Below, in pieces: positions 2,827 through 33,144 of a stretch of 58,507 nt of DNA. The position numbers and the translations under genes were made by a program. Source of the DNA: a virus (taxonomy: Duplodnaviria > Caudoviricetes); the IMG/VR virus record IMGVR_UViG_3300031669_000032, positions 1-58,507 of that record, one strand, 5' to 3'. The notes under the pieces are model-generated. The model saw nothing but the letters and a program-made list of their open reading frames with translations. It was not told where the DNA came from and did not search any database. The first letter of the stretch is position 1, and the number at the start of each line of letters is the position of its first letter.

Positions 2827-4256
2827 TTGTATATTATCTCCTTTTTCTCTCTATTAACCAGCAGCACCGATAGCCTTTGCTCCGCTATCTTGACATGTTC
2901 AGCTACCTTATCGCAGCCTATGAAATCTCTATTCATCCCGGCTGCAGCCAGTAGACTTGACCCGCTGCCGGCATAAAAGTCCCCGATCAGATCACCCGGT
3001 CGACTTGCAAGCGTTACCAGGTAAGCGAATATCTGCACTGGCTTTTCAGTTAGGTGCGCCTCTCTGCCGACCTTTGTTGACGCCGATGGTTTCGGCACTG
3101 GTAGGAATGGGTATGTTTTGGGCAACTTTTCGCGGCACCAAGAATCGAAACAAAAATATCTGGTATATGAGCCGGAATCCTGATAACCGGTCGAGGCTTC
3201 ACTTTTATTTCCAAATATACCTTTTTTACTTCCACTGCCAGATTTTCCGCCATTTACAATAGACTTTGCAGGCCTTGATTTTTCACATTCTCCGGTATCA
3301 AGTAGGTCGCCCTGGACGAGCAGGTTTGTGGGGTATCTGCCGTCAAGTCGTTTCCATTGATTCTCTATTCCGTAATTATTAATTAATTTTCCACCAACAA
3401 ATTTATCCTGCAATCCGCTTACCTCCCGTCGTGTATCCTCGCCCATCAACGGCACCCTACACCTATCAAGCCAGGTGCAAGCATGGCCGTTCATTATTGT
3501 CGCTGTGACGTAATCGCTTAACTTTGTATCTCGGTACGGGGTAGACTCGACTAATTTTCCATCAATCCACAACTCATCATTTAAGGCCGGATTAATGGCG
3601 ATCTTTCTGATAGTTTTCGTCTTTTCCCTTTTGGTCTCGAAATAATCTATTTTATGTTTTTCCCAGATTTCCGACCGCTTCACTTTCTCTACTGGCTTCA
3701 TGGCCGTGATTATTATTTCCAGGCACGGCTTCGGACGGTACCTAACGTATGCACCGTCAAATTCTTTTGCAAGGTCGGAAGCTGGGGCGGTGATTTTCCC
3801 TCCCTGCGTTACTGTTTTGCGATACCCCTCTTTTACTCTTTTTACAGAAATACCATTCGGCCTTGTGTATTCCTTTATAACCTCTCCCTCCACTCCCAGC
3901 CTCTTATCGATCATTTTCGACACATTAGCACCCAACCCAATCCCGGTAGCATATGTCCAATAAATTGACGGGAAGTCAATCATGAACCCAGCATCTTCGA
4001 TAAGCCTGGTCATCCGGTAAAGCAGGTCCTGCCTGGGAGATGAGAACACGAAACAGAACGCGCCGGGCTTCAATACCCTGAACATTTCAAGAAAGGCTTC
4101 CTTCGACGGTAAAACCTTGTCCCAACTCACTCCCATAAGCTTCATCCCGTAGGGAGGATCCGCGGCTATCATATCAAGCTTATTGTCCGGGATTCTTTTC
4201 AGTAATTCGATATTATCGCAGTGGTAAACTTTATTCGTCAATATTTTGGGTTCCAT
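2823..4256 (-). CDS. DNA amino-methyltransferase, beta class (likely N6-adenine)
   Basis: DPPY motif; RVLKPG; H.TEKP; DFYAGSGS. Confidence 0.92.
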   Translation of the reverse strand: MEPKILTNKVYHCDNIELLKRIPDNKLDMIAADPPYGMKLMGVSWDKVLPSKEAFLEMFRVLKPGAFCFVFSSPRQDLLYRMTRLIEDAGFMIDFPSIYWTYATGIGLGANVSKMIDKRLGVEGEVIKEYTRPNGISVKRVKEGYRKTVTQGGKITAPASDLAKEFDGAYVRYRPKPCLEIIITAMKPVEKVKRSEIWEKHKIDYFETKREKTKTIRKIAINPALNDELWIDGKLVESTPYRDTKLSDYVTATIMNGHACTWLDRCRVPLMGEDTRREVSGLQDKFVGGKLINNYGIENQWKRLDGRYPTNLLVQGDLLDTGECEKSRPAKSIVNGGKSGSGSKKGIFGNKSEASTGYQDSGSYTRYFCFDSWCREKLPKTYPFLPVPKPSASTKVGREAHLTEKPVQIFAYLVTLASRPGDLIGDFYAGSGSSLLAAAGMNRDFIGCDKVAEHVKIAEQRLSVLLVNREKKEIIYK

Positions 4257-10684: not shown

Positions 10685-10941
10685 AGTTTATCTCCTGACC
10701 GGAATGTCGCGATACCAGTTTCCTCCAACCAACAACGATAACAAAATGTGGTTAATTCATCGGCCAAATATTCCCATCTTTCTAATCCCAGAAAATTCTT
10801 ATAGTGAATCATACCAGTATTACTTTTGCCACAAATCTGGCAGGTATAATTATCTCTTTTTAAAATTTTGTTATTTTTTTTCTGCCAATTTGATTTTTTG
10901 GATATATCAGGTAGGACTTTCTTTCTATTCTTTCTCTTCAT
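10681..10941 (-). CDS. HNH-like protein (degenerate)
   Basis: W.KK...ILKRDNYTCQICG...IHY...L.T.C.RC. Confidence 0.7.
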   Translation of the reverse strand: MKRKNRKKVLPDISKKSNWQKKNNKILKRDNYTCQICGKSNTGMIHYKNFLGLERWEYLADELTTFCYRCWLEETGIATFRSGDKL

Positions 10942-11050
10942 GCGGTCTCCTAAAAAAATAAACCTGGGAACAGGGGATTGAGACCGCGAAGTTTAAATCC
11001 CCTGACAGGGTTCCCAGATTATTATTATTGCTTTTTTTGGTTCGCGGTCT
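10942..11050 (-). ncRNA. Structured leader with anti-RBS loop (C4/CI-like arrangement)
   Basis: Hairpin 10964-11017 whose loop TTCGCGGTCTC is complementary to 11041-11050 and to the RBS region 10942-10949. Confidence 0.6.
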
Positions 11051-11065
11051 TTTTATCATAATCTT

Positions 11066-11094
11066 ATTATGCGCTAATTCTTTCATTTTGTCAA
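11066..11094 (-). promoter_or_regulatory. sigma70 promoter for the replication operon
   Basis: TTGACA-17-CATAAT. Confidence 0.75.
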
Positions 11095-22070: not shown

Positions 22071-22388
22071 CTATTTAATAGTGCGGTCATTTTGGTCTAT
22101 ATTAATTAATACGAATGGTTCTGGTGAGCCCTTTGATTCCATCGCAATTTCCAAAATCCAACCCCGGCTCTTCACCTGCCCCACAACTCCAACCAGGTTC
22201 GGCTTTTTTCCATTCTGTAATAATCCGCCTTTGTTCACGGGAGCGGATGCGAAAACAGACTTCCCATCACTTTCCCGAATGAGCCGGTAAACGCCCTTCG
22301 CAAATTCCCAATGGCATATGTCGCCCGGTTCAGCATGGGGTGCTTTGGGGTATTTTGGGTAAGTGTTTTTAGCGATCTTGATTTTCAT
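22071..22388 (-). CDS. Hypothetical protein
   Basis: ORF in operon; start uncertain. Confidence 0.55.
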   Translation of the reverse strand: MKIKIAKNTYPKYPKAPHAEPGDICHWEFAKGVYRLIRESDGKSVFASAPVNKGGLLQNGKKPNLVGVVGQVKSRGWILEIAMESKGSPEPFVLINIDQNDRTIK

Positions 22389-22569
22389 TTTGATCTTCCC
22401 GCTCTCCAATTACGGACACAGTATCCTTGTCCGCAAAAAAAATCTTCCGTGTGACAATGTAGTTGTGATCGTTCATGTATATCGTATCCCCAATGTTGGG
22501 GATTGCTGGAAGCCAGATGTGCTTCGCAAGCTCTGGTGTGTTGAATAAAACCCTCATTTCTTGATTCAC
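22369..22569 (-). CDS. First gene of leftward operon, hypothetical
   Basis: GTG start with TTAGGAGGT RBS; P.IPNIGD.I....Y.V..K.F motif. Confidence 0.7.
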   Translation of the reverse strand: MNQEMRVLFNTPELAKHIWLPAIPNIGDTIYMNDHNYIVTRKIFFADKDTVSVIGEREDQNENQDR

Positions 22570-22602
22570 AATAACCTCCTAAGTTATTTTTAATATTGCA
22601 AG

Positions 22603-22784
22603 CAGGGCGCATCCCGAAGGAATCGCAAGACAGTCAATCTTGTGATCGATAATGCCATGGAATGAATGCTGCGTGCCTGTATCTGCCCGTGCTGTATCCA
22701 TCGACCGTTCCTGGCAGGGTTGACGATTTCCTGCTACGATCGAGCATTAACGCCCCGTCAAAATTATATCGCCCAACCTGGGCA
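22603..22784 (-). ncRNA. Structured 5' leader RNA of the leftward operon
   Basis: Multiple nested stems, a C(UUCG)G tetraloop and complementary loops between promoter and first RBS. Confidence 0.6.
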
Positions 22785-22789
22785 CCTTA

Positions 22790-22864
22790 AGTATAATATG
22801 GTTTTCGCAAATTGTCAACAAAAAAAATTATTTTGTTGACAATCTGATATTTCCATATTATACT
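22790..22864. promoter_or_regulatory. Symmetric divergent sigma70 promoters
   Basis: TTGACA-17-TATACT on both strands; 12-bp and 13-bp perfect inverted repeats. Confidence 0.88.
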
Positions 22865-22870
22865 ATAGAT

Positions 22871-23119
22871 ATGAAAAAAATAAAAGTATTAAGAGAAAAG
22901 TTACCGGGGAGAACTCATTTGGTTTCTCTCCGGGTAAATAGGTCTGTGGCCGATTTCATGAGTTACAATGCAGACGAATGGGGTCGCTCAACAAATAAGC
23001 AATGGGGCTTCATAGCTGGACTTTATGCTGCTGGAAATTTCGAGGAGTTAGAGAGGCAGTACAACGGGCCAGATGAGGCGAGGAAGCAAGAAAAGAAAGA
23101 AATAGGGGTGGTAAAATGA
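22871..23119 (+). CDS. Arc-like ribbon-helix-helix repressor, leaderless
   Basis: VSLRV...V.D.M...A...GRS.N matches the Arc/Mnt pattern; ATG follows the -10 after 6 nt, no SD. Confidence 0.75.
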   Translation: MKKIKVLREKLPGRTHLVSLRVNRSVADFMSYNADEWGRSTNKQWGFIAGLYAAGNFEELERQYNGPDEARKQEKKEIGVVK

Positions 23120-23373
23120 AAAGTAAACCCGACGCTAAAGAAATCACAATTCATATTTTCCATGCTCCCAGCGTTAGAGATATAAAAGTTGATGTTCAGC
23201 GGAAAATCTGTCTATTTCTGGATAAAAATAATGACTTCCGGGCCATGACAAGCACGGAGTTATTCTGCAAGACGTGCCCATTGAGTACCGACTGCGCGGA
23301 AGCAAATCGCGGTCATGATGGCTCGGTGGAGGTAAACAATGACCAAAAAAATATACATCTTAAGGAATCCTGA
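23116..23373 (+). CDS. Cys-containing hypothetical protein
   Basis: ATGA coupling; FC..CPL..DC. Confidence 0.55.
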   Translation: MKSKPDAKEITIHIFHAPSVRDIKVDVQRKICLFLDKNNDFRAMTSTELFCKTCPLSTDCAEANRGHDGSVEVNNDQKNIHLKES

Positions 23374-28732: not shown

Positions 28733-29211
28733 AAGCCAAAAACAGCAATAAGCTCAAGGTGAAAATCAAAGGTATGGTGTACCGGTTAACCTATGCGATA
28801 CGCTGCCTATTTAGTTTTTGTTTCATCATGCCGATTAATATGATTGTCGAGACAATTAAAGCGTCCGCCGCCTATAATGCTGAGATTGAAAAGCTTAGTA
28901 AAATATCCCATAATAAGGATATGAAAACGAGAGAAGGGGTGGCGTTACCTGCTGCAATTAATTGGCTATATGTAGATGAAGCTATAGAAGTGTTAGCCAG
29001 GACTGTGGACGGTAAGGCGCTATTGTCTACGCGTGCATTTATCAACACACATATGGCAGGCCGTAAGAATTGGGCTACATACAGTATAGCGGAATTGATG
29101 AAAGAGATTAAAGAATCCCTTGAGACAAGTAAAACATCGGCGGACATGAAGGGGATAGGTGAAATGGCGTTTTGCGTTAGCCGCTTCATGGAAATACTGG
29201 AGAAGAAATGA
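28729..29211 (+). CDS. Hypothetical protein
   Basis: ATGA coupling on both sides. Confidence 0.6.
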   Translation: MKAKNSNKLKVKIKGMVYRLTYAIRCLFSFCFIMPINMIVETIKASAAYNAEIEKLSKISHNKDMKTREGVALPAAINWLYVDEAIEVLARTVDGKALLSTRAFINTHMAGRKNWATYSIAELMKEIKESLETSKTSADMKGIGEMAFCVSRFMEILEKK

Positions 29212-29438
29212 AAGAAAGCGGACTCTCTTTCAAAGCATTGTCCTGCGGCATGTGTCCGGACTGCGGAAGGTACACTCGCTTCGCTAACTTTCACATGACC
29301 TGGCAAGGTTGGGATTCTACCTGTTTACGGTGTGGCCGGAGATGGGGCGATGGAGAATGGTTGCCTCTTGACTTCTCTCGGTATGCGAGAAGAGATAGTA
29401 TTGATTCTGCTAAAAGGAGATGGAAAAGTGGGAATTGA
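29208..29438 (+). CDS. Zn-ribbon protein
   Basis: CPDC...W.GW..TCLRCGR.W.DGE. Confidence 0.65.
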   Translation: MKESGLSFKALSCGMCPDCGRYTRFANFHMTWQGWDSTCLRCGRRWGDGEWLPLDFSRYARRDSIDSAKRRWKSGN

Positions 29439-32715: not shown

Positions 32716-32790
32716 CTGCAAATAAACTTGCATTTCTACTTACCATTGCAAGCAAACTGCAAATAAAAAAATAATAATTGCGTTTCGTAG

Positions 32791-32819
32791 TTGACAAATA
32801 GCCATAATTATACTATTAT
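32791..32819 (+). promoter_or_regulatory. sigma70 promoter of second early operon
   Basis: TTGACA-17-TATTAT with A-rich upstream tract. Confidence 0.8.
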
Positions 32820-32862
32820 ATAGTTGGTAACCGGGTGTTACTGAATAACTTAGGAGGTTATT

Positions 32863-33144
32863 ATGAAACAAGAAATAAGGATTAATTTTGCGGTTCTGGA
32901 AGATGTAAGTAGGATATGGAATAAGGGGAATAAGGAAAGGTACTATCTCACGGAACGTAGTATCGACCCTTGTCTTTCAGCGTATATCTCAAGAGAAAGA
33001 GACAAGGGCCGGTATGAGATAGAGTTAAGTAACGGGTTCCTATATCTCGAAAAATGTTACAATGATCTTAACAAAAGGATAGAGGAAATTGTCGAGATGT
33101 TGAAGGTTAACAATTGTATGGCTTACGAGCCGAATAAAAATTAA
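32863..33144 (+). CDS. Early hypothetical protein
   Basis: W.KG.K.RYY motif; TTAGGAGGT RBS. Confidence 0.7.
   Translation: MKQEIRINFAVLEDVSRIWNKGNKERYYLTERSIDPCLSAYISRERDKGRYEIELSNGFLYLEKCYNDLNKRIEEIVEMLKVNNCMAYEPNKN

Follow-up and report, generated by a model that had tools for sequence, protein, structure and literature searches.

Introduction

What does an untranslated leader of approximately 180 nt do at the head of a long early arm in a virus genome? The window, i.e., the whole stretch of DNA analyzed here, is a single virus record of 58,507 bases with 40% GC and a completeness estimate of 89%. On its minus strand, a series of complementary segments follows a promoter-like sequence. The original prediction was that these segments form a structured leader, possibly with a kissing loop or pseudoknot, which might act either as an antitermination RNA similar in role to HK022 put or as a riboswitch. 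In this study, a structured, untranslated leader right after the promoter was supported, and the leader region is real, non-coding and modular. Its 153-nt core is a candidate for a new phage RNA motif with a narrow distribution.

Genomic Context and Relatives

The minus-strand genes of the window span 22.57 kb to approximately 0.7 kb, and the leader lies at the head of this arm. The first products of the arm are small proteins without assigned function, and recombination and replication genes lie beyond them. The genes farther in the arm encode a Sak4-like annealing protein, a Cas4-like exonuclease, an HNH endonuclease, methyltransferases, a replication initiator and a DnaC-like loader. The arm was originally regarded as a single unit of approximately 22 kb. 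Its minus-strand genes do extend over this length, but the arm is split by a promoter-like site and a strong terminator-like hairpin (Table 1). In addition, the window encodes a protein of 1085 amino acid residues that, judged by its size, might be the tape measure protein; its sole PHROG match is without known function. Of 50,697 deposited phage records, none matched the 901-base region 22300–23200 in a blastn search.

Related loci were obtained through the first gene of the operon, whose product has 66 amino acid residues. A scan of metagenome contigs with an alignment of the 66-aa homologues yielded 10 loci, and a scan of species genomes yielded one more. Thus, 11 of the 12 loci, as well as every core copy except the window's own, came via this gene. 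No relatives were found in viral_contigs with the 66-aa protein, the divergently encoded 82-aa protein or the Sak4-like protein as anchor. Every core copy that was found sits ahead of the same 66-aa gene, and this apparent linkage is biased because the copies were found through that gene.

Upstream sequence was compared at 11 places, including the window. The core is present in 10 of them and missing from L010, in which the promoter and the 5' hairpin lead directly to the ribosome-binding site. Contigs of run X4 carry an L010-like joint as well as another upstream sequence without the core, and those of runs X11 and X12 did not extend over the core. Given its absence from L010 and the X4 joint forms, the core is dispensable. 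In L007, L008, L009 and L012 (the L007 type), the order is promoter, hairpin, ribosome-binding site, 61-aa zinc-ribbon ORF, second hairpin, core and 66-aa gene, and the core lies approximately 250 nt downstream of the promoter. The leader is thus built of separable modules. The zinc-ribbon ORF, found at 3610–3795 of L008 and also in the other three loci, precedes the core and has an AGGUU-loop hairpin on either side. In Pfam, it is best matched by the restriction-alleviation protein Lar, with an E value of 4e-4 and below the curated cut-off. Finally, L014 is a contig of 2,892 bases binned in a Dehalococcoidia MAG, and it carries the promoter region, the core and the 66-aa gene. It may be a phage fragment that was mis-binned, and because it is so short and possibly mis-binned, it provides no evidence of the host.

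The element family is tiny and was seen only in a few soil and sediment metagenomes. When run on the window and the 10 metagenome loci, the covariance model R1 found no second core copy. It matched one of 151 genomes of the class Dehalococcoidia, which was the MAG holding L014 with the known copy only, and none of the 150 others. No match was found with three core patterns in viral_contigs or with one in genome_contigs. A fifth core pattern hit L016, but this partial match of 12.6 bits lies within an ORF and was ascribed to chance. A blastn search of the core against 72,556 plasmids found no match. The Rfam search that had been suggested recognized no family: the full 58,507 bases gave 0 matches at the gathering score, and region 22300–23100 at E ≤ 10 gave 7 low-scoring matches, six of them to microRNA precursor families and one to a Salmonella sRNA, all of which were far below the cut-offs.

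Promoters, 5' Hairpin and Ribosome-Binding Module

Transcription from the leftward promoter is predicted to start near 22784–22786. This promoter is kept in the window, L004, L005, L006, L011 and L014, and L010 has a variant form. A mirror-image rightward promoter, also TTGACA-17-TATACT, is back to back with it at 22836–22864. A 13-bp inverted repeat (region 22811–22871) holds the −35 hexamers of both divergent promoters and is, judged by this arrangement, likely an operator. The rightward promoter precedes the 82-aa gene (22871–23119), whose ATG is only 6 nt past the −10 hexamer. Thus, the mRNA of this gene is probably leaderless. No Pfam or PHROG family was found for the 82-aa protein, and Atlas pointed only weakly to a ribbon-helix-helix protein. 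In the rightward operon, the leader core has no counterpart.

The 5' hairpin that had been predicted right after the promoter, GCCCA/TGGGC, is present on the minus strand, and its stem covaries. Its stem variants were GCCCA/TGGGC, GCTCA/TGAGC, CTCCA/TGGAG and CCGGATA/TATCCGG, of which the AGGUU loop is invariant. Both sides change in six of seven pairs, 0 of 500 shuffles attain the covariation score, and 88.6% of cells are paired, compared with 27–46% with slid partners. The alignment behind these values has five distinct rows, of which four came from positional alignment and one, hairpin 1 of L007, from a search that requires a stem and therefore favors pairing. L010 has the hairpin despite lacking the core, and each of the L007-type loci has two copies of it. 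The window contains one AGGTT-loop hairpin with a stem of at least 4 bp, and composition shuffles contain 2.5 on average. As this count is no higher than that of the shuffles, the significance of the hairpin comes from its conservation rather than its count. The hairpin is short and not a convincing terminator. Between it and the core, the −10-like TATAAT is present in the window, L004, L005, L006 and L014, is AATAAT in L011 and is absent ahead of the core in the L007-type loci.

The ribosome-binding module folds into a hairpin of 7 bp, and half of the Shine-Dalgarno sequence is buried in it. The module is also found at 435–451 of L010 and 3594–3608 of L008, and is reused at 32845–32861 on the plus strand of the window. 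The AGGUU of the 5' hairpin loop is repeated within this module. At 32790–32865 of the plus strand, a second cassette was observed, which consists of a promoter, a 5' hairpin (GTAAC-CGGGT-GTTAC) and the same GAATAACTTAGGAGGTTATTATG module, and has no 153-nt core. The gene of this cassette begins with MKQEIRINF, which resembles MNQEMRVLF of the 66-aa protein. The alleles of the AU-rich linker, which lies between P1 and the module, assort separately from those of the core.

The 66-aa gene starts with ATG in L010, L011, L012 and L014. Four clusters of homologues of its product were identified, with identities of 85–93%. The 66-aa protein is predicted to be all-beta from its modeled structure (pLDDT 62.6). 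No family was found for it, no PDB fold matched at E ≤ 0.001, and Atlas returned only unnamed viral clusters.

Table 1. Positions of the leader features and of the terminator-like hairpin of the same arm in the window.
Feature	Position	Strand	Basis or remark
Leftward early promoter, TTGACA-17-TATACT, 11/12 consensus matches	22790..22818	minus	sequence prediction
5' hairpin, UGCCC-AGGUU-GGGCG, fixed loop, covarying stem	22770..22784	minus	covariation
Perfect −10-like TATAAT between 5' hairpin and core	22763..22768	minus	read from sequence
Core, P1-closed branched fold, 153 nt	22603..22757	minus	predicted fold, conservation
P1 (GGGGCGU/GCGCCCU)	22757-22750/22610-22603	minus	dot-bracket of core fold
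P2	22749-22743/22656-22650	minus	dot-bracket of core fold
P3	22742-22736/22708-22702	minus	dot-bracket of core fold
P3b	22734-22730/22718-22714, loop 22729-22719	minus	dot-bracket of core fold
P3b loop AAAUCGUCAAC; GUCA(A) complementary to P5 loop (U)UGAC at 22632-22637	22719..22729	minus	candidate kissing/pseudoknot contact
P4	22701-22697/22661-22657 and 22692-22685/22676-22668, loop 22684-22677	minus	dot-bracket of core fold
P5	22647-22637/22631-22621, loop 22636-22632	minus	dot-bracket of core fold
P6	22620-22613	minus	dot-bracket of core fold
AU-rich linker, P1 to ribosome-binding module	22581..22602	minus	two length and sequence alleles
Ribosome-binding module AUAACUUAGGAGGUUAU, AGGAGG at 22580-22575	22571..22587	minus	fold centroid, repeats elsewhere
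First operon gene, 66 aa, GTG start	22369..22569	minus	homologues, AGGAGG upstream
Promoter-like TTGACA-17-CATAAT	11094-11066	minus	45 nt upstream of terminator-like hairpin
Strongest terminator-like hairpin of the window, tail UUUAUUUUUUU	10952..11020	minus	terminator scan, fold

Predicted Fold of the Core

All of the helices listed in the original prediction are present on the minus strand after the near-consensus promoter, and all are found in the minimum-energy folds of both the leader and the core. The GGGGCGT/GCGCCCT helix, which closes the core as P1, has 7 bp including two wobbles. The TCGATCGT/ACGGTCGA helix, with one G-U, encloses GCAGG/CCTGC with the loop AAATCGTCAAC. The ATCACAAGA/TCTTGCGAT helix has one A-C mismatch and the loop TTGACTG, and the TCC-TTCG-GGA hairpin is present as well. 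In addition, the minimum-energy folds contain two helices beyond that list, UAAUGCU/GGCAUUA and AUGGA/UCCAU with an extension. In the predicted topology, P2, P3 and P4 meet in a three-way junction without unpaired bases, P5 and P6 branch from P1, and P1, P2 and P3 share one unbroken 5' strand of 21 nt.

The folding energy of the window's leader had a z score of −0.63 (54 of 200 shuffles as good) and that of its core −1.50 (14 of 200), so that energy alone is not significant for the window copy. The antisense of this core scored −0.41 (68 of 200). The z scores were −4.01 and −4.79 for the cores of L005 and L006, respectively, with 0 of 200 shuffles as good in either case, and −2.29 (4 of 200) for the antisense of the L005 core. 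In both the window and L005, the sense strand of the core folds better than the antisense.

The core has 54% GC, compared with 40% for the phage, and is within the top 0.46% of its 153-nt windows. A second GC-rich island, with at least 54% GC over 153 nt, was observed at 29213–29398 on the plus strand, partly in a gap between called ORFs, and it may simply be the 76-aa ORF at 29208–29438. No long terminal inverted repeats surround the core, and no second copy was found in the window or in the other loci. A MITE is unlikely, as the terminal repeats are only 5–6 bp. Moreover, no reverse transcriptase, as would be expected of a retron RNA, was found beside the core, and no tRNA-like element was found.

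Alleles of the Core and Their Conservation

The identified cores fall into two alleles, with only eight distinct sequences sampled. Allele A comprises eight copies that differ from the window at no more than two of 153 positions, with a single change in L014. Allele B, which was found in L005 and L006, differs by approximately 12% and carries an insert of 25 or 26 nt. The two alleles assort independently of the neighboring gene. For instance, the window and L012 have 0/153 differences in the core and 20/183 in the adjacent gene, and the window and L006 have 18/153 and 2/183, respectively. Between the P6 loop and the linker, in the 3' part of the element, the alleles are distributed in a pattern of their own, so that recombination takes place both within the element and around it.

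In the core, 98.9% of cells are paired, compared with 34–43% with slid partners. Variable columns make up 17 of 57 unpaired and 10 of 100 paired columns (one-sided Fisher p 0.002), a test in which the structure was predicted from these same sequences. Seven one-sided changes keep the pairing via G-U and would be A-C on the other strand. Moreover, the insert of allele B folds into a separate hairpin at the P4 tip, and mismatches beside P3b and inside P4 become pairs in this allele. Three core pairs are broken, of which two are in allele B (U-A to A-G and A-U to A-C) and one is in L014. The covariation that was proposed as a check was found for the stem of the 5' hairpin, but in the core 0 pairs changed on both sides in a shallow alignment of seven distinct rows. 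Support for the core fold is thus moderate and comes from the pattern of conservation. The unpaired bases of loops and junctions are conserved as well as the helices.

The Putative Loop–Loop Contact

A pairing between the loops GTCAA and TTGAC was part of the original prediction. Their complementarity is real, lies inside the conserved core and, in four pairs (GUCA/UGAC) of which 100% of cells are paired, survives a change from C-G to U-G in allele B; however, the evidence is one-sided only, as no compensatory change was found across the rows. The alternative pairing of GTCAA with the upstream TTGACG was rejected. This complementarity exists, but L006 has an altered form of the partner, and the partner is missing from L007, L008, L009 and L012, all four of which have cores with at most one difference from the window in 153 positions. 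Two other candidates were also discarded: in allele B, the P3 internal loop AGGAA no longer pairs with UUCCU, and a kissing duplex as a mimic of the −35 or operator word is degraded there.

The Terminator-Like Hairpin of the Same Arm

The terminator-like hairpin lies 11.6 kb downstream of the leader in the same arm and is followed by replication genes. It accounts for the top two matches of the terminator scan, one per strand, and is also terminator-like on the plus strand. Its 128-nt leader has a folding energy of −32.5 kcal/mol with a z score of −2.33. After the hairpin, AGGAG and then an ATG at 10941 were observed (10935–11094, minus strand). Moreover, GACCGCG occurs twice, once at the 5' end of the leader of this hairpin and once at the ribosome-binding site, and the hairpin loop contains the complementary CGCGGUC. 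The sequence of 10935–11094 suggests an attenuator or a unit similar to PR'/tR'. If the leader modifies polymerase, this hairpin would be a candidate target; a factor other than the leader may act on it, as it has a promoter of its own 45 nt upstream.

Possible Functions of the Core

Based on these observations, the leftward early transcript would carry two independent RNA modules. One is the promoter-proximal hairpin with the fixed AGGUU loop, common to all relatives; the other would be an optional 153-nt domain that folds on its own and is closed by P1. The core is exchanged among related phages as a cassette via recombination in conserved flanks, of which the promoter with the hairpin would be the left joint and the ribosome-binding module the right joint. 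As unpaired loop and junction bases are conserved alongside the helices, the core is taken to bind a partner as RNA. In the leading model, to which we give a probability of approximately 0.3, the core is a polymerase-modifying cis RNA that resembles HK022 put in role and not in fold. It would fold while emerging from a host-type RNA polymerase and act in cis on that polymerase. Early transcription would then pass pauses and terminators, particularly the one at ~10.95–11.02 kb before the replication genes. The position of the core, directly after a near-consensus promoter or, in the L007 type, approximately 250 nt downstream, argues for this model, as do its non-coding nature, its 54% GC island, its pattern of conservation and the strong terminator of the same arm. 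Against it stand the dispensability of the core, which is absent from L010 and two other X4 joint forms, the lack of pair changes on both sides, the folding energy of the window copy, which is no better than that of 14/200 shuffles, and a fold unlike that of put. Moreover, the rightward operon has no counterpart, and the terminator has a promoter of its own. More broadly, and with still greater reserve, the core might found a new class of RNA-only accessory cassettes in phage early regions. Such a cassette would be a six-helix domain, possibly locked by the loop–loop contact, that binds a macromolecule at the start of infection, either the host RNA polymerase or, as a decoy, a host defense or RNA-binding protein, and that is traded at the hairpin and ribosome-binding joints.

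The core could instead be a payload, i.e., a stable non-coding RNA that is freed from the early transcript and acts in trans, for instance as a decoy for a host defense or RNA-binding protein. This RNA would be released by a cut in the AU-rich linker and bounded on its other side by the 5' hairpin, and the site would be an accessory slot like those of small anti-defense genes. RNA-based anti-defense by phages is described in PMC10651486. Gain and loss of the core as a cassette in near-identical backgrounds fits such a role, as does the conservation of loops and junctions as well as helices. The neighboring slot of the L007 type, which has the same hairpin boundary, holds the zinc-ribbon ORF with the weak Lar-like match below the cut-off. 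However, no terminator or recognizable processing site is found at the 3' end of the core, no repeats like those of CRISPR or toxin-antitoxin systems were found, and every core copy precedes the same 66-aa gene, though 11/12 loci came via that gene. In addition, no complementary target longer than 10 nt was found in the phage for the exposed loops, only scattered 9–10-mers as expected by chance. Overall, the payload reading is doubtful. We are equally hesitant about a core that has no RNA function, being a recombining spacer, a selfish insertion or a DNA-level site such as an auxiliary operator, whose near-identity would reflect recent spread and not selection. The TTGAC-like words of both loops would suit an auxiliary operator, and the lack of compensatory covariation, the shuffled alleles, the dispensability, the tiny family and the z score of only −1.5 for the window core are all consistent with this reading. 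Yet alleles that are 12% apart keep 98.9% of cells paired and have their changes concentrated in loops, and allele B loses the GTTGAC word (GTTAAT) and keeps the RNA pairing via wobble. Moreover, the element has neither long terminal inverted repeats nor a second copy, and its GC content is atypical for the spacer DNA of this phage.

The remaining explanations are less likely. The core may be a processing, stability or insulation domain that guards the 5' end of the mRNA, or an end made by cleavage in the L007-type operons, and shields the ribosome-binding hairpin from upstream pairing. According to a review, 5'-terminal structures and Shine-Dalgarno-like sequences stabilize mRNAs, including phage SP82 mRNA in B. 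subtilis (PMC7509114). Closure by P1 keeps the domain from pairing with its flanks, and P1, P2 and P3 are on one unbroken 5' strand, both of which would suit this role. It is nevertheless unlikely: the simple 5' hairpin, found in all relatives, would suffice for protection, six helices and conserved unpaired bases exceed the needs of a stabilizer, and L010-type phages manage without the core. A riboswitch, in which an aptamer for a host metabolite or signal sets early-gene expression, was one of the two functions originally proposed. Its appeal lies in the P1-closed multi-helix junction, the conserved loops, the 5' leader position and the possible loop–loop contact. It is disfavored, and we regard it as improbable, because no expression platform was recognized: there is no terminator/antiterminator between the core and AGGAGG, the Shine-Dalgarno sequence is in its own small hairpin with or without the core, and no core helix sequesters it. 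In addition, no Rfam aptamer matched even at E ≤ 10, the downstream genes encode small proteins without known function and not metabolic ones, and the element is optional. Finally, translation of the region, as the 22385–22612 frame or as a 40-aa frame at 22579–22701, is scarcely credible. Both frames are open in the window, and AGGA is 7 nt upstream of the 40-aa frame. The frame starting at 22612, whose translation had been named as a ground for refuting the prediction, closes after 8 codons in L004, L005, L006, L007 and L008. L005 lacks the 40-aa frame, L006 has a truncated and different version of it, and allele B has AAAA in place of its AGGA. No reading frame of the core is kept across the alleles, of which B carries the insert of 25 or 26 nt. 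In contrast, homologues are known for the overlapping 66-aa frame, whose start at 22569 is preceded by a strong ribosome-binding site, AGGAGG.

Comparison With Known Systems

The pRNA of phage phi29 has approximately 120–174 nt and is transcribed from an early promoter; its 5' and 3' ends form a closing helix, a three-way junction lies at its center, and two of its loops are complementary over 4–5 nt. Similar to this pRNA in size, the core also has a closing helix, a three-way junction, complementary loops and an early promoter. It differs in having no Rfam match, the pRNA family included if it is in release 15. With 58.5 kb, a putative tape measure protein of 1085 residues and recombination genes, the phage is not phi29-like, and a part essential for packaging could not be missing from close relatives, as this element is. 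The c4 RNA of P1 and the CI RNA of P4 are small structured immunity RNAs in the leaders of early operons, whose loops are complementary to nearby sites of the same transcript. The core would likewise be a small structured leader RNA of an early operon with complementary loops. However, its complementarity spans only 5–6 nt, the upstream partner is not conserved, and no target near the ribosome-binding site was found.

To our knowledge, few factor-independent RNAs reprogram RNA polymerase, and RNA-based counter-defense by phages has only recently been described. A compact RNA domain that is gained, lost and swapped at the start of an early transcript would add a new case of one or the other that is amenable to study, and the core is small enough for probing, reporter and cryo-EM work. 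Among the RNAs that act on polymerase, put is described as suppressing pausing and termination via the beta-prime zinc-binding domain. In the account of PMC9378689, putL is just downstream of an early promoter and putR approximately 270 nt downstream, both head long early operons, and no phage protein is needed. The same account describes put as approximately 70 nt with two stem-loops and a triplex, and putL as having a −10-like element at +23 to +28. Similar to put, the core is on the predicted nascent transcript past an early promoter, and both of the placements described for put in PMC9378689 were seen. The TATAAT of the leader, at approximately +18 to +23, is another likeness, but it is ahead of the element and not inside it. 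Different from put, as known by its description, the core has 153 nt, six helices and two junctions, so that neither size nor fold corresponds. Moreover, the core has no similarity in Rfam, is present in one copy per phage and is optional among relatives. If the host RNA polymerase is its partner, the core would be the first put-like device outside the lambdoid phages, with an unrelated fold.

The modular arrangement is similar to that of the PeSL cassettes of T4-type phages. In the account of PMC2839356, small conserved promoter and stem-loop modules flank variable early genes and act as joints at which recombination inserts, deletes or replaces sequence; these cassettes are also treated in PMC4122927. 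In the loci of this study, the promoter, the AGGUU hairpin and the ribosome-binding module bound slots that hold the core, the zinc-ribbon ORF or nothing. The promoter-hairpin motif repeats at 22.8 kb, at 32.8 kb and twice in the L007-type loci, and the variants differ exactly between the modules (11 loci). A promoter followed by a strong stem-loop terminator is also found at 11.09–10.95 kb. Different from the PeSL cassettes, the present elements belong to another phage group, and their hairpin is short and not a convincing terminator. Moreover, the likeness explains the shuffling and not the 153-nt payload. Even if the core is only a recombining spacer, the loci still document how early cassettes are shuffled at joints made of a promoter, a hairpin and a ribosome-binding site, in a phage group that is distant from T4.
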